Positions 19,421-64,000 of a stretch of 64,000 bases of DNA are shown one piece after another. Positions within the stretch are counted from its first letter, which is position 1. The number at the start of each line of letters is the position of its first letter. Position numbers and translations under genes: made by a program. The stretch lies in the NCBI GenBank assembly GCA_963817955.1, contig CAWFQK010000006.1, positions 32,001 through 96,000 of the forward strand. The letters run 5' to 3'. Under the pieces are notes generated by a model. The model was not told where the DNA came from. It worked only from the letters and a program-made list of their open reading frames with translations, and ran no database searches. Origin of the DNA: an uncultured Gemmatimonadaceae bacterium (GTDB lineage: Bacteria; Gemmatimonadota; Gemmatimonadetes; Gemmatimonadales; Gemmatimonadaceae).

Positions 19421-19422
19421 TG

Positions 19423-23531: not shown

Positions 23532-23932
23532 TGGCGCGTCACCAACGGAGGAGTGCGGTACTGGTACGTCCGCACGGTGTATGAACCGGCTGGCCACTCG
23601 ACAGTGACCCGTATGTCATACACGCCAGCCTGCGCCGACAGCGCGGTGCTCGTCGCTGTCCAGGAGTACTCGTCGAGAGGCGGCAGGAAGTTGCCTTTCG
23701 CCACGGAATCGGCCAGCGACTGGAGCTCGACGTCGCTCAACAGATTCATGAATTCCAGGCGGGAGCCGGCAAGGGCCTCGAGCTCCATGGCACGACGAGC
23801 CCGCTCCGCGGTCCGCATGTCTGAGCCGACAGCTTCGAGCGCGCCCACCGCCGTCATGCCGACGATGGCGACCGCCACCACGGCCTCGAACAACGAGATG
23901 CCGCGCCGGCGGCGGTCAGCGGGAATCGGCAC
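23528..23932 (-). CDS. gspI: Prepilin-type pseudopilin (GspI-like)
   Basis: RRGISLFEAVVAV; ~134 aa with IRVTVEW. Confidence 0.72.
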   Translation of the reverse strand: MPIPADRRRRGISLFEAVVAVAIVGMTAVGALEAVGSDMRTAERARRAMELEALAGSRLEFMNLLSDVELQSLADSVAKGNFLPPLDEYSWTATSTALSAQAGVYDIRVTVEWPAGSYTVRTYQYRTPPLVTRQ

Positions 23933-25573: not shown

Positions 25574-25618
25574 GAGTGAGGCTGAGGATGACATCGCGGC
25601 GGCTGCGCCGACGCGATG

Positions 25619-26089: not shown

Positions 26090-26254
26090 CTGGGAGGGAA
26101 AGAGCGAGCACTGCGGACTGTTGGACACATCGAGCGCGGAAACGGTTTTCCTACCATGACTTAGCCGCGCCCTGATATAACTACGCGTGAATGGCAGACG
26201 CCGTTTGACCGGTCGGCGTTAAGATGCCTGAGTGCGCAGGTCTCGGCCAGATGT

Positions 26255-26298
26255 GGGACACGAGACACGAGACACGGGACACGAGACAACGAGACACG
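26255..26298. repeat. Heptamer tandem repeat (G[A/G]GACAC)n
   Basis: About six units read directly, just after the fabH stop; same unit at 59413-59446. Confidence 0.85.
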
Positions 26299-30527: not shown

Positions 30528-31645
30528 TTCGACGCCTGCTTCACGGCCGGTTGTGCTGTCGATGTCTTCACGTCGACCTTGATGTTGGGAGTCAACCGCG
30601 ACTGCCCGTCGACGACGATCTGTTCTCCCATTGCGAGTCCTTTGTCAATCGTCGTGAGCTCGCCAACGGCCCGTCCGACGGTCACCGGGCGTACCTGCGC
30701 TGTCTTGTCGGCGCCCACGACGAACACGTAGCTGCCTTGTTGCCCCGATTGCACGGCGCGCGTCGGCACGGCGATCGCATTGAGCTCAACGCTGAGTTCG
30801 ACGCTCACCCGGACATACTCGCCGGGCCACAAGGTGTTCAGGTGATTCTCAAATCGCGACTTGGCCGTCACCGTTCCGGTCAGCGAATCCACCGCGTTGT
30901 CGAGAAATGCGAGCGCACCGACCTCTCCCACCTTGCCACTGTCCGCCATTACGACGCGGACCGGCACCGGGCCGCGCGCGTTGCGCCGCTGCAGTGCGGG
31001 AAAGTCATGCTGCGCCACCGGAAAGCGGACGAGAATGGGATGCAACTGGTTGATGACGACCAGCGGATCCGAGCCCGGCTTGACGAGATTCCCCTGCCGC
31101 ACGAGCAGGCGCCCGGTGCGACCGGCGATCGGCGCGCGGATCGTGGTGTAATTCAAATTGAGTCGGGCGTTGTCGACGGTGGCCTTGTCTGCCTGCACCG
31201 TGGCGCTGGTGGCCGTCGCGGCAGACGCCACCTGATCGGCTTGCGACTTGGTGACATAGTCCTTCTCCACGAGCGCCTTGTAGCGATCCGCGTCGCGCTG
31301 TGCGTTCTGTGCCTGCGCTTCGTCGCGTGCCAACGTGGCTTGTGCCTGCCGCAGCGCCGCTTCAAAAGGACGTGGATCAAGACGGAACAGCACTTGGCCG
31401 GCCTGCACGTCATCGCCTTCGCGGAACGACACGGCATCGAGTGTTCCGCCCACCTGGGCTTGCACGGCCACCGTTTGCATGGGCTCGACGATGCCGTTCT
31501 CTTCGAGCGTCAGTGGCGCGGAGATCGTCGAGGCCTGCGCGACCTGGACGGGAATGGTTGGCGTTTTCTGGACGGGCGGCGTGGCGCACGCGGCCAAGGC
31601 GATCGCAGAGAGGGCTACAGGAATTCGATATGAATGGATACTCAT
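30524..31645 (-). CDS. RND periplasmic adaptor (MFP), lipoprotein, MdtA-like
   Basis: LAAC lipobox, QVGG, GQVLF.LD, IRAPIAG, LWPG, VVDGQ.RL. Confidence 0.92.
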   Translation of the reverse strand: MSIHSYRIPVALSAIALAACATPPVQKTPTIPVQVAQASTISAPLTLEENGIVEPMQTVAVQAQVGGTLDAVSFREGDDVQAGQVLFRLDPRPFEAALRQAQATLARDEAQAQNAQRDADRYKALVEKDYVTKSQADQVASAATATSATVQADKATVDNARLNLNYTTIRAPIAGRTGRLLVRQGNLVKPGSDPLVVINQLHPILVRFPVAQHDFPALQRRNARGPVPVRVVMADSGKVGEVGALAFLDNAVDSLTGTVTAKSRFENHLNTLWPGEYVRVSVELSVELNAIAVPTRAVQSGQQGSYVFVVGADKTAQVRPVTVGRAVGELTTIDKGLAMGEQIVVDGQSRLTPNIKVDVKTSTAQPAVKQASK

Positions 31646-33093
31646 CGGCCGGGTCTCGCGTCCGGTGCCGGTGTCACGGGCATGAAGGTGGTGTCGCCGC
31701 GCGCGTCGAGCACGCCGGCGTCATGGGCGAGCTGGGCCAGGGCCGTGCGCCACTGCCAGCGCGCATCGACCGCTTGGGCGCTGGCGGTCGCGAGCGCGCT
31801 CTGCGCCACGAGGAGATCGACGATACTGCCGACCCCTTCGCGGTAGCGCTCGCGTGCCACCTGCTCCGATTGCGTGGCGCTCGCCAGAAGGTCCCGCGAC
31901 GTCCGCACCTGATCGGTGGCTGTCCGCAGCGTGTAGTACGCGTTGAATACCTGCTGCACGATCTGCTGCCGCGTCAACTCGGTACGGGCGAGCGCCGCCT
32001 GATACTGCTCCGACGCCGACGCAACGTCATACTGTTGCGACTGACCGCTGAACACCGGAATGGACACCCCGAGGTTCAGGGCGTACGTGCGACCGGCAAA
32101 CGTGGAGACATTCGATCCATTCGACCCGCCCACGCCGGTGAGCGCCAGCGCCGGAAGCATGGCCGATCGCGCCACGCGAATCTGAGACGACGCCGCCATG
32201 GCCTGCGCTCGCGCCGTGGCCAGCTCGGGGCGGTTCTGCACGGCCAGGTTGATCAGCGAATCCACCGACTGCGCCACGAAGTACACGGAATCGCCGGCGG
32301 GAATATTGGGAATGTCTACCGGCGTATTGGCGGGAACGCCCATCGCCACCGCGAGTCCGCCACGGGTGATTTGCAGCGCGCCCTCCAACGACTCCAGCTG
32401 GAGCTCCGCCTGCGAGCGCGCAGTCTGTGCCTGCAACACATCGGCGATCGTCGCCAGTCCGACGCGGTGCCGTTCGTTCGCTGCATCCAATGCGGCCGCC
32501 GCCAACTGCACCGAGCTTTGCTGCGCATCGCGTTGCGCCCGGGTCGACAGATAGCTGAACGCCGCCGCCTCCACCTGCAGAATGGTGTTCTGGACGGTCG
32601 CGTTGTGCGTCAGATCGGCGGCCACCGCGGTCTGCCGAGCGACGTCGATCATCCCCGAGCGTCCTCCGAAATCCAGCACGGTGTACGACAGGCTGAGCGA
32701 CGGTCCGTAGACCATGCGCCCCACCGGCGGACGCCCCAGGGTGGCGAGCGATGTTTGCTGCGTCCCCGTGAGGCCGGCGGTCAGCGTCGGCAGATATTTG
32801 CCTTCGCTCGAGCCATACACATCGGCAGCCGCGCGCGCCTGCGACCAGGACATCCGCGTCGCCGGGCTATTGCGCAACGCGAGGTCGACGATTTGTGGCA
32901 GCGTGAGTTGCCGTGCCGCGCTCACCGACAGATGCACGGCACCGGTGTCGCGCGCCGGCTGAGGCTTCACCGTCTCTCCCTGCAGCCACGAGCTCCCCGG
33001 ACTGGACGGCGTCGGAGCGACGCCGTCGATGTCCGGCGGATGCGTCGCACATGCGGCGCACAGTACTGCGGCCGCAATAGCCCAACGTGTCAC
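31642..33093 (-). CDS. TolC family outer membrane efflux protein (lipoprotein)
   Basis: Lipobox-like CAAC, AL.NSP, VGLAT.ADVLQA, YREGVGS.VDLL.AQ repeats. Confidence 0.9.
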   Translation of the reverse strand: MTRWAIAAAVLCAACATHPPDIDGVAPTPSSPGSSWLQGETVKPQPARDTGAVHLSVSAARQLTLPQIVDLALRNSPATRMSWSQARAAADVYGSSEGKYLPTLTAGLTGTQQTSLATLGRPPVGRMVYGPSLSLSYTVLDFGGRSGMIDVARQTAVAADLTHNATVQNTILQVEAAAFSYLSTRAQRDAQQSSVQLAAAALDAANERHRVGLATIADVLQAQTARSQAELQLESLEGALQITRGGLAVAMGVPANTPVDIPNIPAGDSVYFVAQSVDSLINLAVQNRPELATARAQAMAASSQIRVARSAMLPALALTGVGGSNGSNVSTFAGRTYALNLGVSIPVFSGQSQQYDVASASEQYQAALARTELTRQQIVQQVFNAYYTLRTATDQVRTSRDLLASATQSEQVARERYREGVGSIVDLLVAQSALATASAQAVDARWQWRTALAQLAHDAGVLDARGDTTFMPVTPAPDARPGR

Positions 33094-34325
33094 GGCGTAG
33101 CCTTCGCCTCACGAACCACCGGCGCCGCGGTACGCCGGAGATTCGCGGCGATCGCCAGCTTGGGCGGGGTGGTAGGCTTTGTCGTCATGATCGCGCCGAG
33201 TTGCACGACCTTGTCGCCCTCCTTCAATCCGTCGATCACCTGCACCACGCGAAGGTCCGTGGGACCGGTCTTCACGAAGCGCATTTCATAGGTGCCATCA
33301 GGCAGCGCCACCACCGCGTAGCGGCCCGGCACGCCGGTCGTTCCCTCTCCCCCCGTCAGATCGGTTCGCAACTGAGCGATCAACGTGTCGACGGATACAC
33401 CGAACATCCGCGACACCGGCGCCAACTCATTCGTCGGCCGGATGGCATCGATCGGAACTTGCAGGGTGTTCTTGAGGTCGCCGGCGCTGATGGTCACTTC
33501 GCCGTTCATGCCCGGCATCAACAGGCCTTCCTTGTTGTCGATGCTCACCAGCACGGGGAAGAACGTCACGCCCTGCGTGACGACGGCCTGCGGCTCCACC
33601 TTCTCGATTGTGCCCAAGAAATCGCGGTCCCGATAGGCATCCACTGCAACCGTCGCTTTCTGACCGACGCGCACGTTGGCCATCTCCACTTCGTCGATCG
33701 TCACGCGCATGCGAACGCGCGACAGATCGGCGATCGTCATCAGCGTGGTACCGCCGTTGGGCGACGTCGCTGACGTGATGATCGTTCCCTGGGTCGTCGG
33801 CCGGCTGACGATCGTACCGGAGATTGGCGCTTCCATCGTGGCGTCCTCGAGCTTCTGGCGTGCCAGATCCAGATTGGCGCGCTTGTCCACCAGGTCAGAA
33901 GCCGCCGCCGAATACGTCGATTTCGAGCTGTCATGTGCCGAGGCGGTCACCACATGGCGTACGAACAGCGAATCCAACCGCGCACGATCACGCATGACCT
34001 GGTTCAACGTCGTCATGGAGACAACGTCGTCGGCCATTGCCTGATCGTACTGATTCTTCACGTCACGCGGGTCGATCACCGCGATGATCTGGTTTCGCTT
34101 TACGACACTGCCGACTTCCACGGGCAGCTGCGTGACCATGCCCTGAGCCTTCGATTTGACGTCCACCGGGTCGATCGGCTCGACCACGCCGGTGGCCTGG
34201 ACGCGGATGGCGATATCGGCCTTGGAAGCGGTGTCCGTGGGAATGTTCGCCATCGCGGTCTGCTCGGCCTGGCAGCCGGCAATGGCAATCGCAACGAGGA
34301 GCGGGGAGATGCGTCGCAGAAACAT
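33090..34325 (-). CDS. Second periplasmic adaptor (MacA/HlyD-like), lipoprotein
   Basis: IAGC lipobox, ATGVVEP...VKSK, APISGTI, IADLS, IDE, LMPGM. Confidence 0.85.
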   Translation of the reverse strand: MFLRRISPLLVAIAIAGCQAEQTAMANIPTDTASKADIAIRVQATGVVEPIDPVDVKSKAQGMVTQLPVEVGSVVKRNQIIAVIDPRDVKNQYDQAMADDVVSMTTLNQVMRDRARLDSLFVRHVVTASAHDSSKSTYSAAASDLVDKRANLDLARQKLEDATMEAPISGTIVSRPTTQGTIITSATSPNGGTTLMTIADLSRVRMRVTIDEVEMANVRVGQKATVAVDAYRDRDFLGTIEKVEPQAVVTQGVTFFPVLVSIDNKEGLLMPGMNGEVTISAGDLKNTLQVPIDAIRPTNELAPVSRMFGVSVDTLIAQLRTDLTGGEGTTGVPGRYAVVALPDGTYEMRFVKTGPTDLRVVQVIDGLKEGDKVVQLGAIMTTKPTTPPKLAIAANLRRTAAPVVREAKATP

Positions 34326-51621: not shown

Positions 51622-52272
51622 CTAGTTCTTCGGCACCGTCAGGCGCGCGTATGTCGAGTCGATCCGCCGCACGTACCCGAGCGTCTCCAAGTAGCGCCAC
51701 CGTTGTACAGTGGGGGCAATGCGCTCGACACTCGCCCAGGCCGGCGCGCCCGACTTTGCACGCGCCATGGCCAGGGCGCGCGTGATCGTTCCTTCGCCGG
51801 CGTTGTAGCTGGCGAACATGAAGTGATGCCGTTCGTCTTCCGGCACATCGTTCTGCCACAACTGCCACAAGTAACGATCGTGCATGATGCCCGCGGCAAT
51901 ATTCCACTCCGGCTGGTCGATGGTGCCGAAGCCCTGCCGGTGCGAGGCAATCTCATGGTAGGTGGAAGGCATGAGCTGCATGACGCCCCGTGCCCCGACC
52001 CAGCTCTGCGCATTCGGGTTCAACTCGCTCTCGGCAAACCCCTGTGCCTTGAAGTACCGCCAGTCGAAGGAGGGCCCGAAATAGCGCTTCGTGTACTTCT
52101 TGAAGGTGGGATCAAATCGCTGACTGATCTTCCGCACGGCGCGCGCGCGCGCCGCGCGTTCCAGCGCCTGTCCGGCCTTGGTCAACGGCGACGTCTGCCC
52201 CCGCGCTTCGCGAGGAGCGAATAGCACGATCAGCAAAGACATCAGCCCCAACCACCGCTGCCGCCGCCGCAT
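51622..52272 (-). CDS. SLT-domain lytic transglycosylase (MltF catalytic-domain-like), exported
   Basis: DWR..KAQ...ES, GARGVMQLMP.T, ASYNAG.G, ET.GYV; signal peptide. Confidence 0.88.
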   Translation of the reverse strand: MRRRQRWLGLMSLLIVLFAPREARGQTSPLTKAGQALERAARARAVRKISQRFDPTFKKYTKRYFGPSFDWRYFKAQGFAESELNPNAQSWVGARGVMQLMPSTYHEIASHRQGFGTIDQPEWNIAAGIMHDRYLWQLWQNDVPEDERHHFMFASYNAGEGTITRALAMARAKSGAPAWASVERIAPTVQRWRYLETLGYVRRIDSTYARLTVPKN

Positions 52273-52275
52273 CAG

Positions 52276-52479
52276 CTACCCGATCGCGCGCCCAACGATG
52301 AGCGCGATGGACAGGAACAGCGCGGCAACGAAGATCGCCACGGCCACGTTGCCCCGCTTGAGCTCCGCGGGGAAGTCAACTTCCGGCGTCAGCCGGTCGA
52401 TGACGCGGTAGCTCACGTACATGAGGACCACACCGACCGCGGCGTAGATCAGGTTGAGCGCGAGAATGGATAGCTGCAC
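52276..52479 (-). CDS. DUF350 family small membrane protein
   Basis: IDRLTP.VDF..EL.RGNVAVAI pattern, two TMs. Confidence 0.82.
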   Translation of the reverse strand: MQLSILALNLIYAAVGVVLMYVSYRVIDRLTPEVDFPAELKRGNVAVAIFVAALFLSIALIVGRAIG

Positions 52480-52618
52480 GACGATCTCCTGAAGAGAGTG
52501 TGCTCGAGAATACGACGGCCGAATGGCCCGTGGGGTTTCGTCTTCGCATGGCGCGACGGTGGGCGGCGGCGATCGGGAGCGCCCTCAAGCGATTGGCCCC
52601 ACTGCGATTACATACTTC

Positions 52619-53087
52619 GGATCTTCGGGGATTTGTGTGGGTGAATTGCCTGTCATCCTAAGCAAAGCGAAGGATCTCTGTGACCGACAGACCAGCTTTT
52701 CAACGCAGAGGACGCAGAGAACTGCAGGAGAACTGCAGAGAACTGCAAAAGAGAACTGGAAAAGGGAACTGCAAAGAAAACTGTAAGCGTACGGAAGAAA
52801 GAAGCGGGTATTGGTGGAATGAAGCGTAATTGCCGAGTCCACAATCATTCCGCTTGGATCGTTGATGATCTCGACCTGGGCGATACCATCGGAGCGTCAC
52901 GACGGCATCAGCCAAGACATCCAGGCGAGACAATCCTTCACGGCCCTCTGCAGTTCTCCTGCAGTTCTCTGCGACCTCTTGCAGTTCTCTGCGACCTCTG
53001 CGTTAAATGCTGTTGCGCCGTTCACCGAGATCCTTCGCTTTCGCTCAGGATGACAGGCAATTCGCCCACTCATTTCCCCGAAGACCC
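52619..53087. mobile_element. Non-coding nested inverted-repeat element (MITE/REP-like), copy 1
   Basis: ~60-bp imperfect terminal IRs (GG[A/G]TCTTCGGGGA...GAATTGCCTGTCATCCT.AGC.AAAGCGAAGGATCTC), inner IR arrays GAGAACTGCA/TGCAGTTCTC, core 52776-52922 shared with 63417-63562. Confidence 0.8.
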
Positions 53088-53621
53088 CAGACTATACCGC
53101 TGTACGACACCGTCGAACGTTTCCCCGCCGACGGTCACGTATAAGTGATGGTCGGTCACCGCCAGATCGAGTGCTGTGCGCCGATCGAGGCGCGCCACGA
53201 GCGCATCGATCAAGGGGCGGTCGACCCCGTATATCTCGATTGACTCGGCGCGATGGATTCGCTCGCCCTCGAGGTGACGCACGAGCTGCGCGGCGTCCTT
53301 GTGTGTGTAGACGACGACGCGTGGCGATGCTTTGCTTGCCTTGTGCAGGCGCGCGGCATCAGGTGAACCAATTTCGATCCAGACGCGGAGCGCGCCTGTG
53401 AGATCGCGCACGACGACCGCTGGCTCGTCCGGCTCGGTCAGCCCTTTCGTGAACGTGATGCCGTCCGTGTACTCGAGGCAGTAGGCAAGGACGCGCGTAA
53501 CGAGATACTCCTCAGTCTCCGACGGCTGGCGCGCCGCACGAAATGCGAGCGTCTCGTAGACGTTGCGGTCGACGTTTGAGAGCTGGACGTCGAAATTATG
53601 AACGGTCGCGGTTAGGGCCAC
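53070..53621 (-). CDS. yaeQ: YaeQ family protein
   Basis: MALTAT, DR.VYE.L....ARQPSET.E, R.LAY, DEPA...DLTG....WIEIG.PD..RL.KA. Confidence 0.9.
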   Translation of the reverse strand: MALTATVHNFDVQLSNVDRNVYETLAFRAARQPSETEEYLVTRVLAYCLEYTDGITFTKGLTEPDEPAVVVRDLTGALRVWIEIGSPDAARLHKASKASPRVVVYTHKDAAQLVRHLEGERIHRAESIEIYGVDRPLIDALVARLDRRTALDLAVTDHHLYVTVGGETFDGVVQRYSLGSSGK

Positions 53622-53710
53622 AGGGATTCACTTGAAATGTTCATGCTGGGCACACACGACACAGGCACACCACGCTAACGGTGTGCCTGTGTCGTTGACG
53701 GATTGGACGC

Positions 53711-56700
53711 TTAGATCGGCGGCTTCACCCGCTTCCCCCAGAGCGCCGAAGGCGGCTCTGTCATCAACCGCTCGACGGGGTGCTCCTTGAGCTGCTTCAT
53801 CCCTTCCTCGACCGCGCGCTCGAGCTGCGGGTCGTGTCCGGCGATGACTTCCTTCGGCGTATTCTCGACGTCGATGTCGGGCGCGACACCTTCGTTCTCG
53901 ACTGCCCACTTGCCATCGCGCGCAAAGAACCCGCCGCGCGGTGCGATCGCCGATCCGCCATCGACGAACGTCGGCGTATCGGCAGTGTGTACCAGACCGC
54001 CCCAGGTGCGTTTGCCGACGAGCGTTCCAACCTTGCGATACCGGAACATGTACGGCATGAGATCGCCGCCCGATCCGGCCATTTCGTTGATGATCATCAC
54101 CTTCGGGCCCCAGATACCAGCGGCGGGACTCGTGAAGGGAACGCGATCGCCGGCCACGTTGTTGAAGTAGCCGTCGAAATTACGTTGCAGAATGTCAATG
54201 ATGTAATCGGCCGCCTGCCCGCCGCCGTTATACCGCTCGTCGATGATCGCGCCCTTCCGATCCTGCTGGGCGAAGTAATAGCGGTTGAAGCTCGTGTACC
54301 CGGGCTGCCCGGTGTTCGGCAGATACACGTATGCGAGCTGGCCATGCGACAGCGAATCCACCGTGCGACGATTGTCTTCCACCCACGCACGGGTTCGCAG
54401 CGTCTGCTCATTCGCCACGGGCAGCACCGTCACGTGCCGCGCACCTTCGAGCGTGGGGGTCGCGTTGACGACGAGACTCGTTTGCTTGTTCGCCGTGCCG
54501 TCGAGCAGCCGATAGATGTTGTCTGGTGCTCGCAGTTCCTGACCATTGATGGCCAGGATGTAGTCGCCTACCCGGACATCCACGCCCGGAGCAGCGAGCG
54601 GTGCGCGAAGATCCGGGTTCCATTCCTCGTCATCGTAGATGCGCGTGATCTTGTACCGGCCATCCTCGATGGCAAAGTCCGCACCGAGCAAGCCACCCGG
54701 GACCGCCGCCGGCACGTCCGGCATGTCGCCGCCGCGCACGTACGAATGGCCGATCGAAATCTCGGCGCCCATCATGTCGATGAGATAATTCAGATCGGCA
54801 CGATGATTCACATATGGCACGAAGGCGCTGTACATCTGGCGAACGCGCGGCCAGTCGGCCCCGTGCTCATTCGGCACGTACAAATAGTCGCGCTGGTTGC
54901 GCCATGCCTCGTCGAAGATCTGCTTGAATTCTTGCTTGGGATCGACGTTCGTCCGCAGATCGGAGTTGATGCGACCCTGTGCTGCTTGCGGCGGATTGCG
55001 GTCGGCGTCCACGATGAACAGCGACGGTCCAGTTGCTGCGCCGCCCCGGCCGCCCCGACCACCAGCCCCGCCGCCCGCGCGATATACCAGCTTGTGCCCA
55101 TCCAGACTCACGTCAAAGTCGGCAACACCAGTGACAAACGGCACGTCGCGGCGATCGCGCAGCGAGAACCGGTGCAGCGTTGCGCCGCCGGCACCACCCC
55201 GTCCGCCCGCCCCGGCACCACCCGGCTCTACGAAATACACCATGCCGGCAACGCCGGCGCGCAGGCTCGAGTACGGCCGCTCGGTGATTCCAGGAACCGC
55301 CAGAATGCGGTGCGCCAGACCATCGAAATCGATGGTCATCGGTTGGCGAAGACCCATGGCAGCGGGACGAACGACTTCCGGTGCAGCGCTATCACCCGCA
55401 ACCGTGGCACCGCCACGACCGCCTCGACTCCCGCCGGCGCCTCTTCCTTCGGCACTCGCAACGCCCTCCTCATCACTCTCAGGGAGGAACGGCGAGGGCT
55501 CGCCCTTGCGCAAGATGGCTACGTAGAGCCCGAAGTTCTCCGTATGGTCGTAGTTCGACATGTCGAGCCACTGCGACTTGAGCGCATAGTCGGTGGAGGC
55601 GAGGAACCACAGATACTTTCCGCTCGCATCCCACGCCGGCGACATCGCGTCAGCCAACCCGTCCGTCACCTGTTTCGACACGCCCGTCTCAACGTTGACG
55701 ACCTCGATCACCTTGTACAGCGAATTGAGGTGCTTCGCATAAGCAATCCACTTGCTGTCCGGCGACCAGGCCGGATTCATCGTGCGCGTCGGCACCATCC
55801 ACGGATCGTTGCCGACGACTTTCGCCTCGCCCGTCGCGACGTCCACCACCCAGAGCTTCAAGTTGGTGTCGTGGAACATGATCTTCTTGCCGTCGGGCGA
55901 CCACGCGGACGTATAGAAGTGGCCCGTCGTGGGAATCTTGATCTCGCGCGGCGGAGTAAGCCCGTCCTGCGCTTCGATGTACAGCGCGTATTCGCCCGAG
56001 CGATCGCTGAAGTACGAGATCTGCTTTCCGTCCGGCGACCAGGCCGGATCGTGTTCGGCCGAGCTCGACGAATTCGTCAGGTTCCTGATGTCGCCCTTGT
56101 CGGCGGGAATCGTGAAGATGTCGCCGCGCGCTTCGACCGCAACGCGCTTGCCGGTGGGTGACAGAGTGAGGTTCGTCATGCTGCCGCTCACGTCCTTCCA
56201 CTGCGGCATCATCCACGGAAAATCTCCAGCAGCCGTGATGTTCACCACGTGCTGGCTTCGCGTCTTGGTGTCGAGCAAATGGATGTCGCCGGCCTGCTCG
56301 AAAACGACGGCGTCGCCATCGGACGCCGCGTCGAGCGTCTTGACGTCGAAATCGCTGAACTTCGTGATCTGCACCAAGCGCTTGGCCTTGGTGTCGTAGC
56401 TCCAGACATTCGCGACGCCATCGCGATCGGAGATGAAATCGATGACGTCGTTGCTGGTCCACACCGGATCCATGTTCTTCGACTCAGCCGTCGTCGGCGC
56501 CGAAAAATGCGAGGGGCCGCGCGGGAGTCCGGCCTGAGCAACGACGAGATCGGACGAGCCATTCGGCGTGGTCTCCAGGTCGAACGTCTTGAGATCGACG
56601 ATCCAGATGGGGCGATTCTGGCCGCCGCGATAGTTGCGGCGCTCCTCGTCCCACGAGTTGTTCATCCGGTAGGCGATGTGCTTCCCGTCCGGCGAGATCT

Positions 56701-57178
56701 TGCCCTGGTAGGCGCGCGGCAACGGCATGGGCGTTTCGACGCCGCCCTCCACCGGCACGGTCCAGAAGCGCGGCGCCGCACTCGGCGCCAGCGTGGCACG
56801 TGACGAGCTGAAGACCAACGACTTGCCGTCGGGCGTCCAGCCCTGAACGATGTCCGCACCGGGGTGCCAGGTGAGACGCTTGGGCTCGCCCCCCCCGGCG
56901 GCCACGACGTAAACGTCCTCGTTCCCGGCGTATTGAGCGCTGAACGCGATCATTTTCCCGTCGGGCGAGAACTTTGGATTCTCCGTGATGCCGGGAAAAC
57001 TCGTGATCCGCCGCGCCGCACCGCCGGCGCGGTCAACCGTCCAGATGTTGTTGGCGTAGGCGAAAGCAATTTGCGTCTTGCTGACCGTCGGCGAGCGCAG
57101 CATGCGCGTTTGCGCAGTAGCGATGACGGGCACCGCCAGGGCGGCGGCGACTGGGATGAGCACGCGCATTCGTGACAT
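53711..57178 (-). CDS. Tricorn protease-like S41 peptidase (beta-propellers, PDZ, S41)
   Basis: Signal peptide, PD40 repeats (FSPDGK, WSPDGK), GLLGADF PDZ, IDERYNGGG, AGSGGD, GKRTWGG, ENEGVAPD, DPQLERA. Confidence 0.93.
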   Translation of the reverse strand: MSRMRVLIPVAAALAVPVIATAQTRMLRSPTVSKTQIAFAYANNIWTVDRAGGAARRITSFPGITENPKFSPDGKMIAFSAQYAGNEDVYVVAAGGGEPKRLTWHPGADIVQGWTPDGKSLVFSSSRATLAPSAAPRFWTVPVEGGVETPMPLPRAYQGKISPDGKHIAYRMNNSWDEERRNYRGGQNRPIWIVDLKTFDLETTPNGSSDLVVAQAGLPRGPSHFSAPTTAESKNMDPVWTSNDVIDFISDRDGVANVWSYDTKAKRLVQITKFSDFDVKTLDAASDGDAVVFEQAGDIHLLDTKTRSQHVVNITAAGDFPWMMPQWKDVSGSMTNLTLSPTGKRVAVEARGDIFTIPADKGDIRNLTNSSSSAEHDPAWSPDGKQISYFSDRSGEYALYIEAQDGLTPPREIKIPTTGHFYTSAWSPDGKKIMFHDTNLKLWVVDVATGEAKVVGNDPWMVPTRTMNPAWSPDSKWIAYAKHLNSLYKVIEVVNVETGVSKQVTDGLADAMSPAWDASGKYLWFLASTDYALKSQWLDMSNYDHTENFGLYVAILRKGEPSPFLPESDEEGVASAEGRGAGGSRGGRGGATVAGDSAAPEVVRPAAMGLRQPMTIDFDGLAHRILAVPGITERPYSSLRAGVAGMVYFVEPGGAGAGGRGGAGGATLHRFSLRDRRDVPFVTGVADFDVSLDGHKLVYRAGGGAGGRGGRGGAATGPSLFIVDADRNPPQAAQGRINSDLRTNVDPKQEFKQIFDEAWRNQRDYLYVPNEHGADWPRVRQMYSAFVPYVNHRADLNYLIDMMGAEISIGHSYVRGGDMPDVPAAVPGGLLGADFAIEDGRYKITRIYDDEEWNPDLRAPLAAPGVDVRVGDYILAINGQELRAPDNIYRLLDGTANKQTSLVVNATPTLEGARHVTVLPVANEQTLRTRAWVEDNRRTVDSLSHGQLAYVYLPNTGQPGYTSFNRYYFAQQDRKGAIIDERYNGGGQAADYIIDILQRNFDGYFNNVAGDRVPFTSPAAGIWGPKVMIINEMAGSGGDLMPYMFRYRKVGTLVGKRTWGGLVHTADTPTFVDGGSAIAPRGGFFARDGKWAVENEGVAPDIDVENTPKEVIAGHDPQLERAVEEGMKQLKEHPVERLMTEPPSALWGKRVKPPI

Positions 57179-57399
57179 CGGTAGCGAGTCAGAGGAGTGA
57201 GAGCGGTGTCGCGCACCCGCTGGCCGGGTGCGGCACCCTGGACAATTACGCATGTTCGGCCGTTCGGCTAGTGTTGCCCTGTCTGATTTGCATACTGCCT
57301 CTATGAAAAGAGTGGTTGGACGCGCATGAACGTGCGGCCGGCGTGCGCGTCCTCACGTCGGCCGGCAATGAACGGGCGGTACTTGGGATTTTCAGTAGG

Positions 57400-57900
57400 G
57401 ATGACGCACGTGCCTGTCGGAGTCACGTGTTGGTCTGTCGCGGTCACGCGTCCGGGTGTCGCGGTCACGCGTCCGGGTGTCGCGGTCACGCGTCTGCTTG
57501 ACGGCGAGACATGCCATCCGGTCGGGATGAAGCGTCAGCGTGTCGGAGCGCCGCGTTCACCAGTCGCGGTCACGCGTTCGTTGGTCGGCCTTCGGCGCTC
57601 GAATGTTGGGGTCGGACGATCGCTTGTCGGGGTCGGACGATTGGCGGTCGGCGTGGCGTGCGTGGCGATCGAGGTGCCGCAACTGACTGTCGCGGTTCAA
57701 CGTCTGATCGTCGCGATCGGGCGTCTATCGAACGGTGTGACGTGTCGCGATGTCGCCGTGTGGCGCGCGGTCGTCGCAGTCACGCGTTCGGATGACGGTG
57801 TATTGGACCCGATGGTCGGGGTTGCGTGCAGCGACGTCGTGGTTCGGCGTTCGGCTGACGAGGTCGCGTGCTCGGCTGACGGCGCCGGCGAGTGGGTACA
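57400..57900. repeat. Degenerate 21-nt-period repeat tract (GTCGCGGTCACGCGTCCGGGT-like); + ORF 57326..57940 reads as V[AG]VxRxx heptads
   Basis: Three near-exact units at ~57437-57493; 7-residue periodicity persists through the 204-aa + ORF. Confidence 0.65.
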
Positions 57901-57976
57901 TCGCGCTACGACGAGGGGCCCGGATCGCGGTCATCCGTGAGGGGTCGAAACGACGAAGGACCTCTTCGACTTGAAA

Positions 57977-58027
57977 GAGATCCTTCGCTTTGCTCAGAAT
58001 GACAACGGGTGGCTCAGGATGACAAGC
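57977..58027. repeat. REP-like AGATCCTTCGC...GCTCAG(A/G)ATGACA doublet
   Basis: Inverted near-copy of 63270-63320; related to the arms at 52650-52678 and 53027-53057. Confidence 0.8.
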
Positions 58028-58559
58028 TCGATCCGTAGTGGCGAGTTCATGCCCCTATATATTAGTTCCGAAATTGGGGGGTCGGCGCAAGAGGCAGTTT
58101 TTGCCGGGGGCCAAAATTCGTCATTTTCGCCCGTTTAGTCGTCGACGTCATCGCGGCAGCGGCGGCGGCGGGGTTACGGGACGTGAGCTCACCTATCGCC
58201 AAGGCTCGCAATTCGCCGATGTAGAGACTTCCCTCCTCCTTCACAGCAGGCGTCGTGGGCTTGGCGCCGGCGGGCGCTGTCCGCGGTGCCGCCTCGCCGG
58301 CCAGGCCAGCCACTGGCATGGAGCTCACGCCTTCGGAAGGGTTGTTCTTGCAGACGGCATCGCTGACCGTCATGCGACCTTGGACGATCCACTTGCCGAA
58401 GTCGTCCTTTAACTAGGGGCAATACGCGTCATGTTTGGATGTCGAACAGATGCTGGTCGATATTGACGACACGCCCTGGATAGTCGTAGTTCTCTGACAT
58501 TCCACCCGGCGCTTGGCCCAGTCCGCCACTCCCGGCCGCAACCCCACACCGACGACCCG

Positions 58560-59414
58560 ATGAGCGATATCGAGCACATTTCGGACACTGCACGCTGGGT
58601 TGCCGTGTACCGCGCCATTGAGACTGCGCGCCCTGACGCGATCTTTCGCGATCCGTTCGCGGCACGACTGGCGGGAGAAAAGGGCCAGGCGATCGTCGAT
58701 ACGCTCAAGCGCGGGCGGTCGCTGGCCTGGGCAATGATCGTCAGAACCGCGGTGTTCGACGAGATCATTCTGGATCGAGTTCGCAATGGTCGGGTGGACA
58801 CCGTGCTGAACCTGGCGGCGGGCCTCGACGCGCGTCCCTGGCGCATGCCCCTCGCGCCGACACTCCGCTGGATAGACGTGGACCTTCCTGGGATTCTCGA
58901 TTACAAGGCAGAGATCCTCCGCGACGAACAGCCCGTCTGCCAGTATGAGACCGTGCGCGTCGATCTCCGTGATGAGGCCAGGCGGCAGGCGCTGTTCAGC
59001 CAGATTGGAGGCGAATCGTCGAACGTGCTGGTGGTGACCGAAGGTCTGCTCATCTATCTCACGGGAGACCAGGTCGGCACGCTCGCGCGCGACCTCCACG
59101 CAGTACCAACCTTTCATGAGTGGCTGATCGATCTCGCCAATCCTCTCTTGTTGAAAATCATGCAGAAGTACTGGGGTCAGAGCGTGAGCGCGGGCGGCGC
59201 GCCATTTCAGTTCGCGCCGGCGAGTGGAACCAAGTTCTTCGAGCCGTTCGGCTGGCGGGAGAAGCGGTTCCGGTCGTCCATGGAAGAGGCACACCGGTTG
59301 GGGCGCGAGATGCCCATGATGTGGTTGTGGCGATTGCTCGCACGGCTACGTTCCGCAGCGGTGCGGGAGAACATCCGGCGCATGTCTGGCTTTGTCCTGT
59401 TGGAACGCCTGTGA
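58560..59414 (+). CDS. SAM-dependent methyltransferase (LCM/leucine carboxyl methyltransferase-like)
   Basis: DTA.WVA.YRA.E..RPDA.F.DPFA, RT..FD, LAAGLDARP.R, VDLP, EGLL.YL. Confidence 0.9.
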   Translation: MSDIEHISDTARWVAVYRAIETARPDAIFRDPFAARLAGEKGQAIVDTLKRGRSLAWAMIVRTAVFDEIILDRVRNGRVDTVLNLAAGLDARPWRMPLAPTLRWIDVDLPGILDYKAEILRDEQPVCQYETVRVDLRDEARRQALFSQIGGESSNVLVVTEGLLIYLTGDQVGTLARDLHAVPTFHEWLIDLANPLLLKIMQKYWGQSVSAGGAPFQFAPASGTKFFEPFGWREKRFRSSMEEAHRLGREMPMMWLWRLLARLRSAAVRENIRRMSGFVLLERL

Positions 59415-59446
59415 GACACGGGACACGAGACACGGGACACGGGACA
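59413..59446. repeat. Heptamer tandem repeat (G[A/G]GACAC)n
   Basis: About five units read directly after the methyltransferase stop. Confidence 0.85.
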
Positions 59447-59477
59447 GGAGCAGTCACACTCGAATTGGAGACTTGAT

Positions 59478-60908
59478 GTGAAGCGTATCGTTCTCACATT
59501 TCTCATGATGCTCCCCGCGCTGCTGTCTGCGCAGGAGACGCCCACCGAACGCGAGTCCGCGCGAGACGTCGTCCGCAAGCTCGATTCGCTACAACGCTCG
59601 CTCGATCTGCCGGCGCTCGTGGCCAAGCTGACCGGCCCGAATGCGGCGCGCGACCAGGTGACCGCGCGCGCGAAAGAGCTGATGGACTCCGACCTGCTCG
59701 CGCTCGGTGACGACATCACGCGGCATCCCGAGATCGGCTTCGAGGAGAAGCGGTCGGTACAGCTCCTCACGGATTATCTCAAGAAGCACGACTTCACGGT
59801 GCAGATGGGCACCCCCGGTCTGCCTACCGCGTTCGTCGCGCGTTACAACAAGAACAACGGCGCGCCCAACCTCGGTGTCATCCTGGAGTACGACGCGCTG
59901 CGCGGTACGAAGGGCGCCTTCCACGGAGACCAGCACAGCACCCAGGGGCCGATCGGGATCGCCGCCGCGGTCGCGATGGCAGAATATCTCACGAAGACAA
60001 AGACGCCAGGCAGCGTTGTGGTATTCGGCACGCCAGGCGAAGAGATGATGCCCCCCAACGCAAAGTTCGTCATGCAGGAGTCACATGTCTTCGACGGGAT
60101 GGACGTGCTCGTGCGTAGCCATTCCACGAGCGCCACGAGCCGGCCCGCGCCGGGCTTTGGCACGTGTTGCATGAACATCGATGGTGTGAAATACACGTTC
60201 AGCGGCGCGCCGGCACATCAGCTCACGGCATGGAACGGCCGTAACGCGCTCACGGCCGTCATCCACCTCTTTGAGAACATCGATGCGATGCGCAGCAACA
60301 TCCGACCGGAAGCGCGCATCCAGGGCGTGATCGTCGAGGGCGGAGCGGCGCCAAACGTCGTCCCCGATCACACCGTGGCCGACTTCTATATTCGCTATCC
60401 CGACGAGGTCTATCTCGCGCAGATCTCACAGATGGTCGACGACGCGGCCCGTGCGGCGGCGCTTGCCACCGGAACGAAGGTGAAGATCGACCACTACGGC
60501 GCAGACCGCGACGGCATCAGCGTGGCGGCGTTGAACGACGTCGCATTCGCCTACATGAAGAAGTTTGGCGCCACAGGCATCTCACCAGAGCCGGGAAAGC
60601 CACAGGGGTATGAAGAGACGGGCAGCGTGTCGCGCGCCATCCCTGGCGCGGGGTTCACGGCAAAATCCTCGAACGCTCCCAACCATACCTACGAGATGGA
60701 GCAGGACGCGCTGGGGCCGATCGGTCACCAAGGCTTTGTGGTCGACGCGCAGTCGATGGCGGCACTGCTGTACGATTTCGCCACTCGGCCGGATTATCGC
60801 GCCACGGTGAAGCGCGAATTCGAGACGATTCGCGGGCTCCACGACCAGTACCTCGAGGACCTCAGAAAGACGTATGTGCTTCCGAAGGTGCCGGATCCGG
60901 AGCCATAG
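59478..60908 (+). CDS. M20 family peptidase/amidohydrolase (ACY1L2-like), exported
   Basis: Signal peptide, HPEIGFEE, TAF.A, EYDAL, GTPGEE, AH...WNGRNAL, GG.APNVVPD. Confidence 0.85.
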   Translation: MKRIVLTFLMMLPALLSAQETPTERESARDVVRKLDSLQRSLDLPALVAKLTGPNAARDQVTARAKELMDSDLLALGDDITRHPEIGFEEKRSVQLLTDYLKKHDFTVQMGTPGLPTAFVARYNKNNGAPNLGVILEYDALRGTKGAFHGDQHSTQGPIGIAAAVAMAEYLTKTKTPGSVVVFGTPGEEMMPPNAKFVMQESHVFDGMDVLVRSHSTSATSRPAPGFGTCCMNIDGVKYTFSGAPAHQLTAWNGRNALTAVIHLFENIDAMRSNIRPEARIQGVIVEGGAAPNVVPDHTVADFYIRYPDEVYLAQISQMVDDAARAAALATGTKVKIDHYGADRDGISVAALNDVAFAYMKKFGATGISPEPGKPQGYEETGSVSRAIPGAGFTAKSSNAPNHTYEMEQDALGPIGHQGFVVDAQSMAALLYDFATRPDYRATVKREFETIRGLHDQYLEDLRKTYVLPKVPDPEP

Positions 60909-60911
60909 GCC

Positions 60912-61010
60912 GACTGTTGAACTACGAGTAAATCGCCAACAATCGATACCGCGGAGGGCGCAGAGGAACGTGGAGGAACGTTCCCTGCGACTCCGCGGTT
61001 CCTCCGCGCC
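60912..61010. repeat. Truncated member of the repeat family: GACTGTTGAACTACGAG.AATCGCCA.CAATCG end plus CGCGGAG/GCAGAG-type hairpin
   Basis: 60912-60945 matches 63202-63235 at 32/34 positions; followed by CGCGGAGG...CCTCCGCG inverted repeat. Confidence 0.75.
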
Positions 61011-61014
61011 GATG

Positions 61015-62370
61015 TTACCGCTTGACGGGCGGTGGACTCACGAGCGAACTGGGAAGTTTTGCCTCCCCGGCACTCGGCACCACTGCAGATTTCCCATCAA
61101 CGCGGTCCGTGTCTATGAGCCCGCGTGAAACCAACTGCGCGGCCAGTACGGTCTGGATGACGCCGATGATGTTGTTCGTCGTGCCTTCCGGCGCGCCCGT
61201 GTCTCCACCGGAGATCGTGACCATCCTGGCCGCGGCGAGCGCCTCGGCAATGACAGGAGCGATCTGCGGCATCATCTCGATCTGCCGGTAGCGGAAGTAC
61301 GACTCTCCACCGGCCTGGATTGCCTGGTTGACCTTCTGGATGCTTTCGGCGGTGGCGTCGGCGATTCGGCGAATGCGAATCGCTTCGGCATCAGCCGCGG
61401 CTTCCGCTCCCAGCCGCACCTTGGCCGCGTCGGCTTTCGCTTGCGCGATCTGCGTCGCGTCGAGCTCCGCCATGCGCATCAACCCCGTGGCTTCCTGACG
61501 CTTGGCTTCGGCTTGCGCGACCAGCGCCGCGTTGGACGCCTTGGTCTGTTCCAGCTCGCGTTGCTTGTCGGAGATCGCCCGCTCTGCATCGAGCTGCGCT
61601 TCCTTCGCGCGGCGCGATTGGTTCGCGGAAACGATATCGGCATTTGCCTGCGCTTCGGCGGCCGACTGCCGGCGGCGTGCTTCCGCGACTTCCGACTGTA
61701 CAACCTTGATGTTCAGCGAATTGAAAATGAGGCCCAGATCCGTGAGCTCGCGTGAACAGGCTTTCCGAATGATCACGGCGAGCGGATCGTCCTCGTCCTC
61801 GATGGCGCGCGCCTCGGACTCCGTGAGAGCCATGGGCGCGGCCTTGACTACGGCCGCCACGGGTGCACCGGCGCCGAGGGCACGCACCGACGGGGCCGTC
61901 TTGGCCGAGAAGAGCTGATCGTGCGTGAGCAGATTCATCGCTCGTCGGCCCGAGCTCGAGAGCAGATCCGTCAACGTGCTGAGCTGATCGGCGTCACTCT
62001 TCGAGAAGAAGCGATTGGCCGCCGTCTTGATCAGAGAATCGGTGTCGCCCACGGAGACGATCGCGCTGGCCAGCACGCGGACCTTGATGGGGCGGGGCGT
62101 GCCGTTCTCGTCCAGATCGGCTGTCTGGTCGGTGATGTCGAGGTCGATGTTGATCACCTTGCTCGAGATCGTCGTTCCCGTGGTGAGCAACGGGATTTCC
62201 TTCGATTTGCCCGGACCGCGATACGTCACCGTTCCGCCGTGCAACCAGCTCACGAGGCGAATGGTGCCGGCATCGACGTTTTTCAGAAAACTGGCAACGA
62301 TCATCGGAACGACGATGATGACGAAGCCAATGACGAGCGCGATCATGACGCCACCCGATAACGTGCTCAT
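61015..62370 (-). CDS. SPFH/flotillin family protein
   Basis: N-terminal TM, SPFH-like domain (ELTDLGLIFNSLNI), AEA-rich coiled coil, IEMMPQI..A flotillin C-terminal pattern. Confidence 0.82.
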   Translation of the reverse strand: MSTLSGGVMIALVIGFVIIVVPMIVASFLKNVDAGTIRLVSWLHGGTVTYRGPGKSKEIPLLTTGTTISSKVINIDLDITDQTADLDENGTPRPIKVRVLASAIVSVGDTDSLIKTAANRFFSKSDADQLSTLTDLLSSSGRRAMNLLTHDQLFSAKTAPSVRALGAGAPVAAVVKAAPMALTESEARAIEDEDDPLAVIIRKACSRELTDLGLIFNSLNIKVVQSEVAEARRRQSAAEAQANADIVSANQSRRAKEAQLDAERAISDKQRELEQTKASNAALVAQAEAKRQEATGLMRMAELDATQIAQAKADAAKVRLGAEAAADAEAIRIRRIADATAESIQKVNQAIQAGGESYFRYRQIEMMPQIAPVIAEALAAARMVTISGGDTGAPEGTTNNIIGVIQTVLAAQLVSRGLIDTDRVDGKSAVVPSAGEAKLPSSLVSPPPVKR

Positions 62371-62406
62371 GAGAACCTCGAAGGATAGGGGTAGGGAAAA
62401 TGATCC

Positions 62407-63069
62407 CTAAACAAGTGATACCATGCAGCGATTCTTACCCGCGTCGACTTCGTCGATGCGAAGGCGTTGGCCAACACGCACGTGTCCGCCGATCAACCGG
62501 TCGTTCGATTGCAACGTGGCCAGTATCTGCACCACCTGGCCGTCCAGCTCGATCGACACGATGCCCTGACCGTTCGCATCGAACGACGTGACCGCCGTCG
62601 CTTCGTCTGACACGGCGCTCTCGAGCGTGAGCGCCGGCGTCGACGCAAAGCGCATGGTGAAATTCCAGAGCGGTGATACGAGGAATCGCTCGAAGATGAT
62701 CGCACCGAGTACCGCAGCAGCAGGCAGCAGCGGCCCGCCGAGCACCGGGCGCAGGAGCTCGCCGGCTGCGCCAAACCCAAGTGCCAGACTGAAGAGAAAG
62801 CGCGGCGAGGTGATGGCGAGCATCCGCTCGGCGCCGCTGGCGTGCGTATGTCCGCCAGCGTGGAGGTGCCCACCCCCGTGCTCGTGGCCGTCGGCGTGCA
62901 GATGGCCACCGGCATGCACGTGCCCACCGCCAACCGCGTGACCACCGCCGGCCACATGACCACCATGCGCGGCACTGCCGCCCCCGTGACTATGTGTCCC
63001 GAGGCCGCTCACCGCCATGACGCCAAGGCCGGCGGCGCCAAGCACCAGACTCGAGATGTAGAGGTCCAT
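62407..63069 (-). CDS. NfeD/YqiJ-like membrane protein with His/Gly-rich loop and C-terminal OB fold
   Basis: TM, (GGHxH)n tract, further TMs, G...IELDGQ...ILA...G..L.I.EVD; directly upstream of flotillin; start at MDLY. Confidence 0.75.
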   Translation of the reverse strand: MDLYISSLVLGAAGLGVMAVSGLGTHSHGGGSAAHGGHVAGGGHAVGGGHVHAGGHLHADGHEHGGGHLHAGGHTHASGAERMLAITSPRFLFSLALGFGAAGELLRPVLGGPLLPAAAVLGAIIFERFLVSPLWNFTMRFASTPALTLESAVSDEATAVTSFDANGQGIVSIELDGQVVQILATLQSNDRLIGGHVRVGQRLRIDEVDAGKNRCMVSLV

Positions 63070-63093
63070 CAAGGGGTTTGAGAGAAGAGACCG

Positions 63094-63138
63094 GCAACAC
63101 GACGTCAATCATACACGCAACACGACGTCAATCATACA
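63094..63138. promoter_or_regulatory. 22-bp perfect direct repeat (23-bp period) upstream of the NfeD-flotillin operon
   Basis: GCAACACGACGTCAATCATACA at 63094-63115 and 63117-63138; regulatory role is inference. Confidence 0.5.
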
Positions 63139-63196
63139 TAACGAATACATGACGCCTAAAGTTCCAGCTTGGGCCAACGCATGCGCTCGTTCAAGC

Positions 63197-63709
63197 TAAC
63201 AGACTGTTGAACTACGAGTGAATCGCCAGCAATCGTTGACGCGGCTGCGAAGATCGTGATCTGAGCGAAGCCTGTCATCCTGAGCGACGGGCTGTCATTC
63301 TGAGCGAAAGCGAAGGATCTTTGTGGCCGACAGAACAGCTTTTGAACGCAGAGGTCGCAGAGAACTGCAGGAGAACTGCAGAGAACTGCGGAGGAACACC
63401 GAGTAAATCTTTATCCGGATGTCTTGGCTGATGCGGTCGTGACGCTCCGATGGTATCGCCCAGGTCGGGATCATCAACGATATAAGCGGAATGATTGTGG
63501 ACTCGGCAATCACGGTTCATTCCACCAATACGCGTTTCCTCTTCCGTACGCTTACAGTTTTCTCTTGCAGTTCTCTTGCAGTTCTCTCCGTCCTCTTGCA
63601 GTTCTCTGCGACCTCTGCGTTCAAAGGCTGTTGCGCCGTCTGCGGTAAAAAGCCGTCCGGCCCTCGAACTGATCTGACTTCTGTCCGGAACTATTTCAAC
63701 AGTCTGCTA
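63197..63709. mobile_element. Non-coding nested inverted-repeat element (MITE-like), copy 2
   Basis: Terminal IR TAACAGACTGTTGAA (63197-63211) / TTCAACAGTCTGCTA (63695-63709), 14/15; contains GTCAT.CTGAGC REP-like units, GAGAACTGCA arrays and the shared core in reverse orientation. Confidence 0.8.
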
Positions 63710-64000
63710 CGCCGGCGAACCCGCCGGCGCTGCTTCACCCAGATTTCCTCCTCGTTGGGTTCGTGCCGGCCGGAACGACAGACCGAACAGGATCAGCACC
63801 CCTGCCGCCCCCGCGGCAGGCACGAGCCAGATGGCATGCCAGTCGTGGATCACGGTAAGGCAGGAATGCGCCGCCGCCGCGGCATCGCTACATCCGGGAT
63901 TCCGCGTCGCGTACCGATCGACCACTGCGCCGGATATGAACGCGCCGACGAAGTATCCCAACCCATTCGTCACGAAATTGATGAATCCCTGTGCCGCCGC
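63707..64000 (-). CDS. Nucleoside permease (NupG/MFS) C-terminal part, truncated by window
   Basis: [27 protein letters not shown]...DW..IWL.PA typical of the nucleoside:H+ symporter C-terminus. Confidence 0.8.

Follow-up and report, generated by a model that had tools for sequence, protein, structure and literature searches.

Location and anatomy of the two copies

The DNA analysed here (the window) is a 64 kb stretch of contig CAWFQK010000006.1 from an uncultured Gemmatimonadaceae bacterium, and our subject is a compound foldback element that occurs in it twice, as copy 1 (52619–53087) and copy 2 (63197–63709). The centre of the element lies in opposite orientations in the two copies, measured against arms that align with each other in the same orientation. 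The original prediction, made from the sequence alone, had placed a nested inverted-repeat element at these positions, and its presence was verified using a repeat search and Tandem Repeats Finder. From their sequence organization, the two loci are best read as copies of a non-coding, non-autonomous compound foldback repeat built from modules and resembling either a MITE (miniature inverted-repeat transposable element) or the repetitive extragenic palindromic/bacterial interspersed mosaic element (REP/BIME) class. The features of the two copies are as follows.

52619–53087, no strand: copy 1, whole compound foldback element, 469 nt, intergenic
52619–52666, plus strand: outermost inverted-repeat arm of copy 1, paired with 53040–53087 (48 nt, 85% complementary, 373 nt apart)
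52664–52746, plus strand: left arm L1, consisting of the end of the GAAGGATC module, the L-type outer 8-mer CCGACAGA, CGCAGAGG units and three GAGAACTGC units
52713–52740, no strand: longest exact inverted repeat of copy 1, 28 nt, paired with 52946–52973, 205 nt apart; candidate crossover zone
52747–52948, no strand: flipped segment of copy 1, consisting of degenerate 13-nt array units to about 52783, the core and a 26-nt spacer (52923–52948)
52775–52922, no strand: conserved core of copy 1, 148 nt, matching the reverse complement of 63417–63563 at 138 of 148 positions
52949–53018, plus strand: right arm R1, consisting of TGCAGTTCTC units, a 20-nt unit in exact tandem, CTCTGCG units and the outer 8-mer of R type
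63197–63709, no strand: copy 2, whole compound element, from the repeat comparison
63261–63319, plus strand: tandem GTCATYCTGAGCG modules and GAAGGATC module, confined to the left of copy 2 (period 20, 2.5 copies)
63307–63389, plus strand: left arm L2, direct repeat of L1 (edit distance 3 over 63 nt)
63341–63369, no strand: longest exact inverted repeat of copy 2, 29 nt, paired with 63597–63625
63390–63565, no strand: flipped segment of copy 2, consisting of the spacer (63390–63416), the core (63417–63563) and then array units
63566–63635, plus strand: right arm R2, in which the 20-nt unit and the adjacent one differ at 2 nt (period 20, 2.2 copies, 91%)

The element can be described as a set of modules: the GTCATCCTGAGCG...GAAGGATC module, arms of CGCAGAGG units, inverted and phased 10–11-nt GAGAACTGCA arrays and a lineage-specific centre of 150–200 nt. 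The flipped segment is composed of the tail of an array (the 'A side'), the core and a spacer of 26–27 nt (the 'B side'). At both of its edges, in both copies, Tandem Repeats Finder reports arrays with periods of 10, 11 and 13 together with the 20-nt unit; the period-13 array of copy 1 occupies 52737–52783 and the period-20 tandem of R1 has 2.2 copies at 95%. When reverse-complemented, the R-type outer 8-mer reads ACGGCGCA. In copy 2 the GAAGGATC module is matched with one mismatch at 63294–63319, and an exact 12-nt inverted repeat, CAGACTGTTGAA, can be read in the outer sequence at 63200–63211 and 63695–63706.

The arms of each copy are near-perfect inverted repeats of one another, extending imperfectly over 34 nt at 97% in copy 1 and over 43 nt at 93% in copy 2. 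As single-stranded DNA, copy 1 folds at −145.6 kcal/mol (z −15.4, a value equalled by none of 100 shuffles), and the part of copy 2 between 63283 and 63650 folds at −89.9 kcal/mol (z −9.5). Like a MITE, each copy is small, ends in inverted repeats and has no coding capacity. No direct repeat that could be a target-site duplication is present in the flanks of 52619/53087 or 63197/63709, and the true ends of the element are uncertain because the modules are nested.

Both copies are located just upstream of the start of a minus-strand gene. The neighbours of copy 1 are the genes for YaeQ (53070–53621, minus strand) and for a DUF350 protein (52276–52479, minus strand), while those of copy 2 are a minus-strand gene that ends at 63707–63709 and a second minus-strand gene with open reading frame (ORF) 62407–63108. 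The genes nearby encode, according to Pfam, YaeQ, the DUF350 membrane protein, an SLT transglycosylase, a tricorn-type protease and proteins without an assigned function.

Orientation of the core relative to the arms

Within the region 52000–64000 the repeat search aligns the left arms as direct repeats (52664–52746 with 63307–63389; 83 nt, 94%) and likewise the right arms (52949–53007 with 63566–63624; 59 nt, 93%). The core between them aligns in the inverted orientation, over 122 nt at 93% (52801–52922 with 63417–63538) and over a further 24 nt at 100% (52775–52798 with 63540–63563). Taken as a whole, the inverted cores are identical at 138 of 148 positions, in good agreement with the approximately 90% that had been estimated by eye, and the complete flipped segment is identical at just 108 of 242 positions when compared directly. 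Direct alignment gives way to inverted alignment at 52746/52775 and 52922/52949 in copy 1; in copy 2 the corresponding positions are 63389/63417 and 63563/63566. As predicted, each of these switch points is located within or at the edge of a GAGAACTGCA or TGCAGTTCTC array. The GAGAACTGCA motif has 11 matches in the window, all of them inside the two copies, where 0.12 would be expected. Such a pattern goes far beyond what chance would give. Inverted repeats that can form a stem-loop enclose the inverted segment, and only the loop is reverse-complemented, the stems retaining their orientation, as judged from few marker sites in nearly symmetric arms.

The last point requires some care. The original prediction stated that the arms share one orientation, and as direct repeats they do; the part that holds less firmly is that the arms themselves have not turned, which depends on few asymmetries. 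Because the arms are mutually inverted, copy 1 also aligns with the reverse complement of copy 2 with the arms included, over about 365 nt with a score of 398, compared with 154 for the direct alignment. Symmetry of this kind makes a difference in the orientation of the whole hairpin almost indistinguishable from a flip of the core alone, a rival that was not considered in the original prediction.

The claim that the arms were not flipped therefore depends on three small markers that distinguish left from right. The first marker, the outer 8-mer, is CCGACAGA in both left arms and, once reverse-complemented, ACGGCGCA in both right arms; it provides four substitution columns. The second marker is the base that follows the first arm unit, where the translated arms read ENC-R-R in L1 and L2 and ENC-K-R in R1 and R2. 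The third is the extra 20-nt unit found by Tandem Repeats Finder in both right arms. The four substitution columns and the one 20-nt unit favour the pairing of L1 with L2 and of R1 with R2, and no reliable column in the arm alignment of the two copies favours a flip of the whole element. The edit distances are 3 between L1 and L2 and 9 between R1 and R2, with all cross pairs in the range 17–23.

Further copies of the core

Copies of the core outside the window were sought with protein searches, by way of spurious ORFs predicted across the element in other records. One reading frame of the core matched the record P0001, and a search of a representative library returned P0001, P0005 and P0006 as real copies; the protein search with two other reading frames of the core gave no matches. 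A fourth library match, P0004, was rejected as a relative. It is an unrelated repeat protein of 590 amino acids with six tandem cadherin-like repeats, and its match to a 44-residue core peptide (E = 2.4e-11) arises by chance through a short DxGDTxG-like stretch that is repeated six times.

A tblastn comparison of P0005 with reverse-complemented copy 2 shows colinearity from 63682 to 63195. The colinear span takes in the arm of L type, both the GAAGGATC and the GTCATCC module and also the outermost module, all on the B side of the core, and the arrangement of copy 2 therefore exists independently. On the A side, marker 2 has the K state in P0005 and a non-G state in P0001, as in copy 2; copy 1 alone is reversed. 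The c1-type spacer is found in copy 1, P0001, P0005 and P0006, or four of the five copies, with the spacer of copy 2 as the odd one out; this spacer type moves together with the core. Within the core, the two blocks CRVHNHSA and DLGDTIG are identical in all five copies at the peptide level. A blastn search of plasmid and phage collections gave no match. On the basis of these searches the core is lineage-specific, with two copies in 64 kb and the only others seen in the three spurious ORFs.

The arm family across genomes

The scan of genome contigs used a 19-nt arm pattern rather than a core pattern. In the window this pattern occurs at 52699–52726, 52976–53007, 63342–63369 and 63597–63624, and elsewhere it was matched at no fewer than 95 loci (L001–L095). 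The matches are mostly in metagenome-assembled genomes (MAGs) of Gemmatimonadota and Acidobacteriota, with a few in other phyla and some chance matches inside genes. At the listed loci the pattern belongs to a very common type of intergenic repeat, whose arm architecture consists of tandem 8–9-nt units of the CGCAGAGG type, a variable loop and then inverted units. At least two inverted units lie within 350 nt in 37 of the 95 listed loci (median gap 53 nt, range 13–251 nt) compared with none of 69 control pieces, the hairpin count being defined by the antisense units and this control only. These 37 loci are hairpins with unrelated loops. In one Gemmatimonadaceae MAG, L021 and L048 have the same left arm and different loops of about 170–250 nt. 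L021 (1101–1700) contains an arm, AACTGC arrays and an inner hairpin of CACAGAG units with a loop of about 170 nt, a nested architecture that is the same as that of copies 1 and 2 with another core.

The core itself is present in none of the 95 listed loci (no high-scoring segment pairs; HSPs), and no orthologue of either locus was found among them, the only similarity being a weak tricorn-like match in L049. Up to 1.5 kb from the arm matches, the ORFs belong to ordinary housekeeping genes. The original prediction had suggested looking for a transposase flanked by the same arms; no transposase domain was found in the 102 ORFs scanned of the 203 in these intervals, and no Y1 transposase of the REP-associated tyrosine transposase (RAYT) type was found in these 102 or in the ORFs of the window. 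The arms belong to a very widespread class of CGCAGAG-unit hairpin repeats, for which sequence-string and keyword searches found no description in the literature. This non-coding arm motif is nearly identical across phyla.

A further module is shared more widely than the element. The GTCATCC...GAAGGATC module recurs in L008, L056 and L090 and at 57976–58028 in the window. At the last position the GTCATCCTGAGCG...GAAGGATC module stands alone at the end of ORF 57326–57940; it is also found on both sides of copy 1 (including 53029–53054), in tandem to the left of copy 2 (63261–63319) and adjoining CGCAGAG arms in MAGs of Gemmatimonadaceae. It is apparently a repeat family in its own right. Since modules are shared with elements elsewhere that have other loops, the elements are mosaics around a lineage-specific core.

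Several other repeats were observed in the window. After the gene at 59478–60908 there is a small member of the hairpin class (60912–61012) with CGCGGAGG/CGCAGAGG units, a short loop and inverted units, which is preceded by a 43-nt module (60912–60954) with 88% identity to copy 2 at its left end (63202–63244). A perfect 23-nt tandem duplication (63094–63138; two copies, 100%) is located just upstream of the start region of the minus-strand gene beside copy 2, and each of its units contains the palindrome TGACGTCA; the duplication may be an operator or promoter element. ORF 57326–57940, which has no Pfam family, contains a perfect 21-nt tandem repeat at 57436–57494 (2.8 copies, 100%), and a second 21-nt array is present at 57608–57651. 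Arrays of 7–8-nt GACACGG/GACACGAG units at 26252–26288 and 59410–59446, 33 kb apart and 92% alike over 37 nt, represent another family of short tandem-unit repeats in this genome.

Coding capacity, promoters and RNA structure

Pfam was searched with 104 ORFs from the window, comprising nine ORFs (one of only 67 amino acids) and 95 of 170 amino acids or more. No Pfam family was assigned to any of the seven ORFs read across the two elements, and no recombinase, integrase or transposase domain was found in the 104 ORFs of the 64 kb, in keeping with the statement in the original prediction that no such enzyme is encoded. No invertase was found next to either copy, or otherwise assignable to it, among these ORFs; a distant enzyme might act in trans. 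A coding function for the core was rejected. There is no Pfam family, most of the differences between copies 1 and 2 change an amino acid, and P0005 and P0006 are frameshifted inside the core, so that the core is not a conserved coding frame. Elsewhere in the window, upstream of the two copies, a type II secretion/pilus-like cluster (16071–25594; T2SSE, secretin, T2SSM, PilN, T2SSK and T2SSF) and a resistance–nodulation–division (RND) efflux cluster (27369–34325; AcrB-like, two HlyD-like and OEP) provide an ordinary chromosomal context.

The original prediction had also proposed that the segment is an invertible cargo, either a promoter or a noncoding-RNA switch. The results do not bear this out. 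A scan for sigma-70-like promoters, which covers this type only, found no site in either copy. Each copy has one terminator-like site, which is no more than is given by shuffled sequences. Rfam gave no match to either copy even at E ≤ 1, the only match at gathering thresholds being a tRNA elsewhere in the window. The z-scores for folding of the core on the four strands were −0.5, −2.6, −0.15 and +0.28, three of which are no better than shuffles, and the two-sequence consensus of the core contains no compensatory pairs. A structured RNA in the core is thus unsupported by Rfam, by folding or by covariation, and the segment shows no promoter or functional cargo in these analyses.

Interpretation of the inversion

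The reading that we favour, with middling confidence, is that of a compound MITE/REP-like foldback repeat whose loop was inverted in a passive event by recombination or template switching between its arms. Of the two proposals made in the original prediction, hairpin-driven inversion is the one that fits best. The central segment (array tail, core and spacer) would have been turned relative to the arms in one lineage, probably that leading to copy 1; on the combined evidence, copy 1 is most simply regarded as one with its central segment reversed between the arms. The exchange would take place between the near-perfect inverted repeats of the arms, of 28–34 nt and about 205 nt apart, by intramolecular homologous recombination or by a replication template switch in the extruded hairpin, and would invert the intervening DNA and leave the repeats in place. 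A crossover within 52707–52740/52946–52979 would give exactly the observed difference, with the 20-nt unit kept on the right. A substrate for such an exchange is present, in the form of exact and imperfect inverted repeats in very stable hairpins. The process would be the same as that which flips hairpin loops in plastid DNA and rRNA genes. In the sections of PMC8794818 that deal with this subject, loop inversions explicable by a single template switch are counted; those of PMC12928735 describe small inversions of 5–50 bp with inverted repeats of 11–24 bp, as well as larger ones. We infer that the event was passive rather than regulated and reversible, in keeping with the searches above, in which no recombinase or transposase, promoter-like site, Rfam match or significant or covarying fold of the core was found. 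The element itself may have a role, for example as an mRNA hairpin between co-directional genes.

A number of observations weigh against this interpretation. The evidence base is thin, at two DNA copies and three protein-level copies only. The scan of genome contigs with the arm pattern yielded no further copy of the core, and an all-against-all comparison of the 95 listed loci (37 pairs with an HSP of at least 70 nt) yielded no second loop flip. The spacers of copies 1 and 2 are identical at only 15 of 30 positions compared with 93% for the core, so that conservation is uneven along the flipped segment. There is very little asymmetry in the inner arms, and taken alone they require about eight events for a flip of the core and about nine for a flip of the whole hairpin, counted by hand on the arm sequences with the 20-nt unit as one event and the outer 8-mer treated as flank. 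The arrays change their number of units freely between copies. Finally, P0001 apparently lacks the 20-nt unit on both sides and P0005 on the one array side, as read from the peptides, and the two 20-nt units of copy 1 are identical, so that the units could be independent in origin.

The main rival to the loop flip is possible but unlikely: the whole inner hairpin, arms and core together, would be oppositely oriented at the two loci, as for a MITE-like element with symmetric termini, and the apparent side-identity of the arms would be the result of similar flanking or target sequence and of independent changes in the tandem units. The alignment of copy 1 with the reverse complement of copy 2 through the arms is what such an arrangement would give. 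With insertions and deletions scored as single events, the inner arms barely discriminate between the two explanations; also in favour of the rival are the free variation in array units, the absence of the 20-nt unit wherever it can be read in P0001 and P0005, and the exactness of the duplication in copy 1, which may thus be recent. In the opposite direction, a whole-hairpin difference requires that one and the same 13-nt string, ACGGCGCAACAGC, stand in the two copies on opposite sides of the core, within flanks that are otherwise unrelated. It also requires two independent 20-nt duplications at one position and one more substitution, at the base that follows the first arm unit. Neither element shows a target-site duplication at its ends. 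In our view, the left/right markers leave this explanation weakened.

A third explanation, which we regard as improbable, is that the core, array tail and spacer form a separate mobile module that was inserted into a generic hairpin loop once in each orientation. The arms are indeed generic: they are found at 95 or more loci, with the core in none of those listed and unrelated loops in 37 of the 95, and one left arm frames the different loops of L021 and L048. However, the core has neither terminal inverted repeats of its own nor a duplicated target at its ends, the c1-type spacer accompanies it in four of five copies whatever the arrangement, and the array on one side grades continuously from arm units to core-side units. 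No enzyme was found.

It is very doubtful that the segment is a programmed, reversible inverton, in which a site-specific recombinase encoded in trans would act at the phased GAGAACTGCA repeats and alter the expression of neighbouring genes or of an RNA. Inverted repeats do flank a segment that is seen in both orientations, and both copies adjoin and lie upstream of minus-strand gene starts. The 10–11-nt phasing of the arrays, with at least three units per arm, resembles that of protein-binding iterons; this helical phasing and the two invariant core blocks, CRVHNHSA and DLGDTIG, are the only hints of a programmed switch. Against these stand the lack of a recombinase in the 64 kb and of a sigma-70-like promoter, Rfam match, significant fold or covariation in the segment. 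The neighbours (YaeQ, DUF350, SLT and a protein of no assigned function) are not typical of phase-variable surface functions, and the two orientations are seen at two loci rather than at one. The broader form of this proposal, in which a trans-acting recombinase at the GAGAACTGCA arrays would reversibly flip dispersed, multi-copy cores at many intergenic sites as a genome-wide switch, is similarly far-fetched.

That the assembler chose the loop orientation arbitrarily can hardly be the case: where a repeat exceeds the k-mer or the read in length, a segment between inverted copies of it can be misoriented, but here the longest exact inverted repeats of 28 and 29 nt should be below the usual k-mers and far below the reads, the cores differ at 10 of 148 positions and therefore represent distinct loci, and the independent record P0005 shows the arrangement of copy 2.

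If the passive inversion that we favour is correct, the two copies provide a clear bacterial case of hairpin-loop inversion inside a dispersed repeat. They would also be a caution against calling 'invertons' on the strength of inverted repeats, or of a reference sequence on its own, and against using such repeats as orientation markers. The arm scaffold is perhaps the more useful lead, as near-identical CGCAGAG-unit arms enclose unrelated loops in many genomes of Gemmatimonadota and Acidobacteriota. Should the flip instead prove to be reversible and enzyme-driven, the element would constitute a new multi-copy class of phase-variable element, and a genome-wide switch would be one operating in soil bacteria on a hairpin-repeat scaffold shared across phyla.

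Comparison with known systems

Both MITE/REP-like hairpin repeats and inversion between inverted repeats are known kinds of phenomena. For this compound family, and for a loop flip between its paralogous copies, sequence-string and keyword searches found no description in the literature. Foldback elements with arms composed of tandem repeats also resemble copies 1 and 2.

Among dispersed repeats, the two copies are most readily compared with MITEs and with REP/BIME repeats (PMC3184786, PMC2817692), which likewise are dispersed, short, intergenic and non-coding and combine terminal inverted repeats with a strong hairpin and a mosaic structure of modules. REP/BIME repeats further consist of palindromic units of about 20–40 nt in high copy number, with a RAYT gene between such units. 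Unlike these, the present copies have no visible target-site duplication, no autonomous partner or RAYT was found for them in the window or in the 102 of 203 ORFs scanned at arm loci, their arm motif spans several phyla and their central segment is inverted relative to the arms.

The resemblance to bacterial invertons, which are promoters turned round by invertases (for example PMC11602134 and PMC11892184), lies in inverted repeats that flank a short intergenic segment near gene starts and in the occurrence of both orientations. The present copies differ in having no invertase nearby and no promoter-like site in the segment, in showing the two orientations at different loci and in being members of a multi-copy repeat with much longer compound arms.

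The plastid 'flip-flop' and template-switch loop inversions described in the corresponding passages of PMC12928735 and PMC8794818 share with the two copies a stem-loop-bounded segment that is reverse-complemented between fixed stems with no dedicated enzyme. In the present case the loop is about 175–200 nt in length, the stems are composed of tandem 10–11-nt units, the DNA is a bacterial chromosome and the two states are found in paralogous dispersed copies rather than at one orthologous locus.

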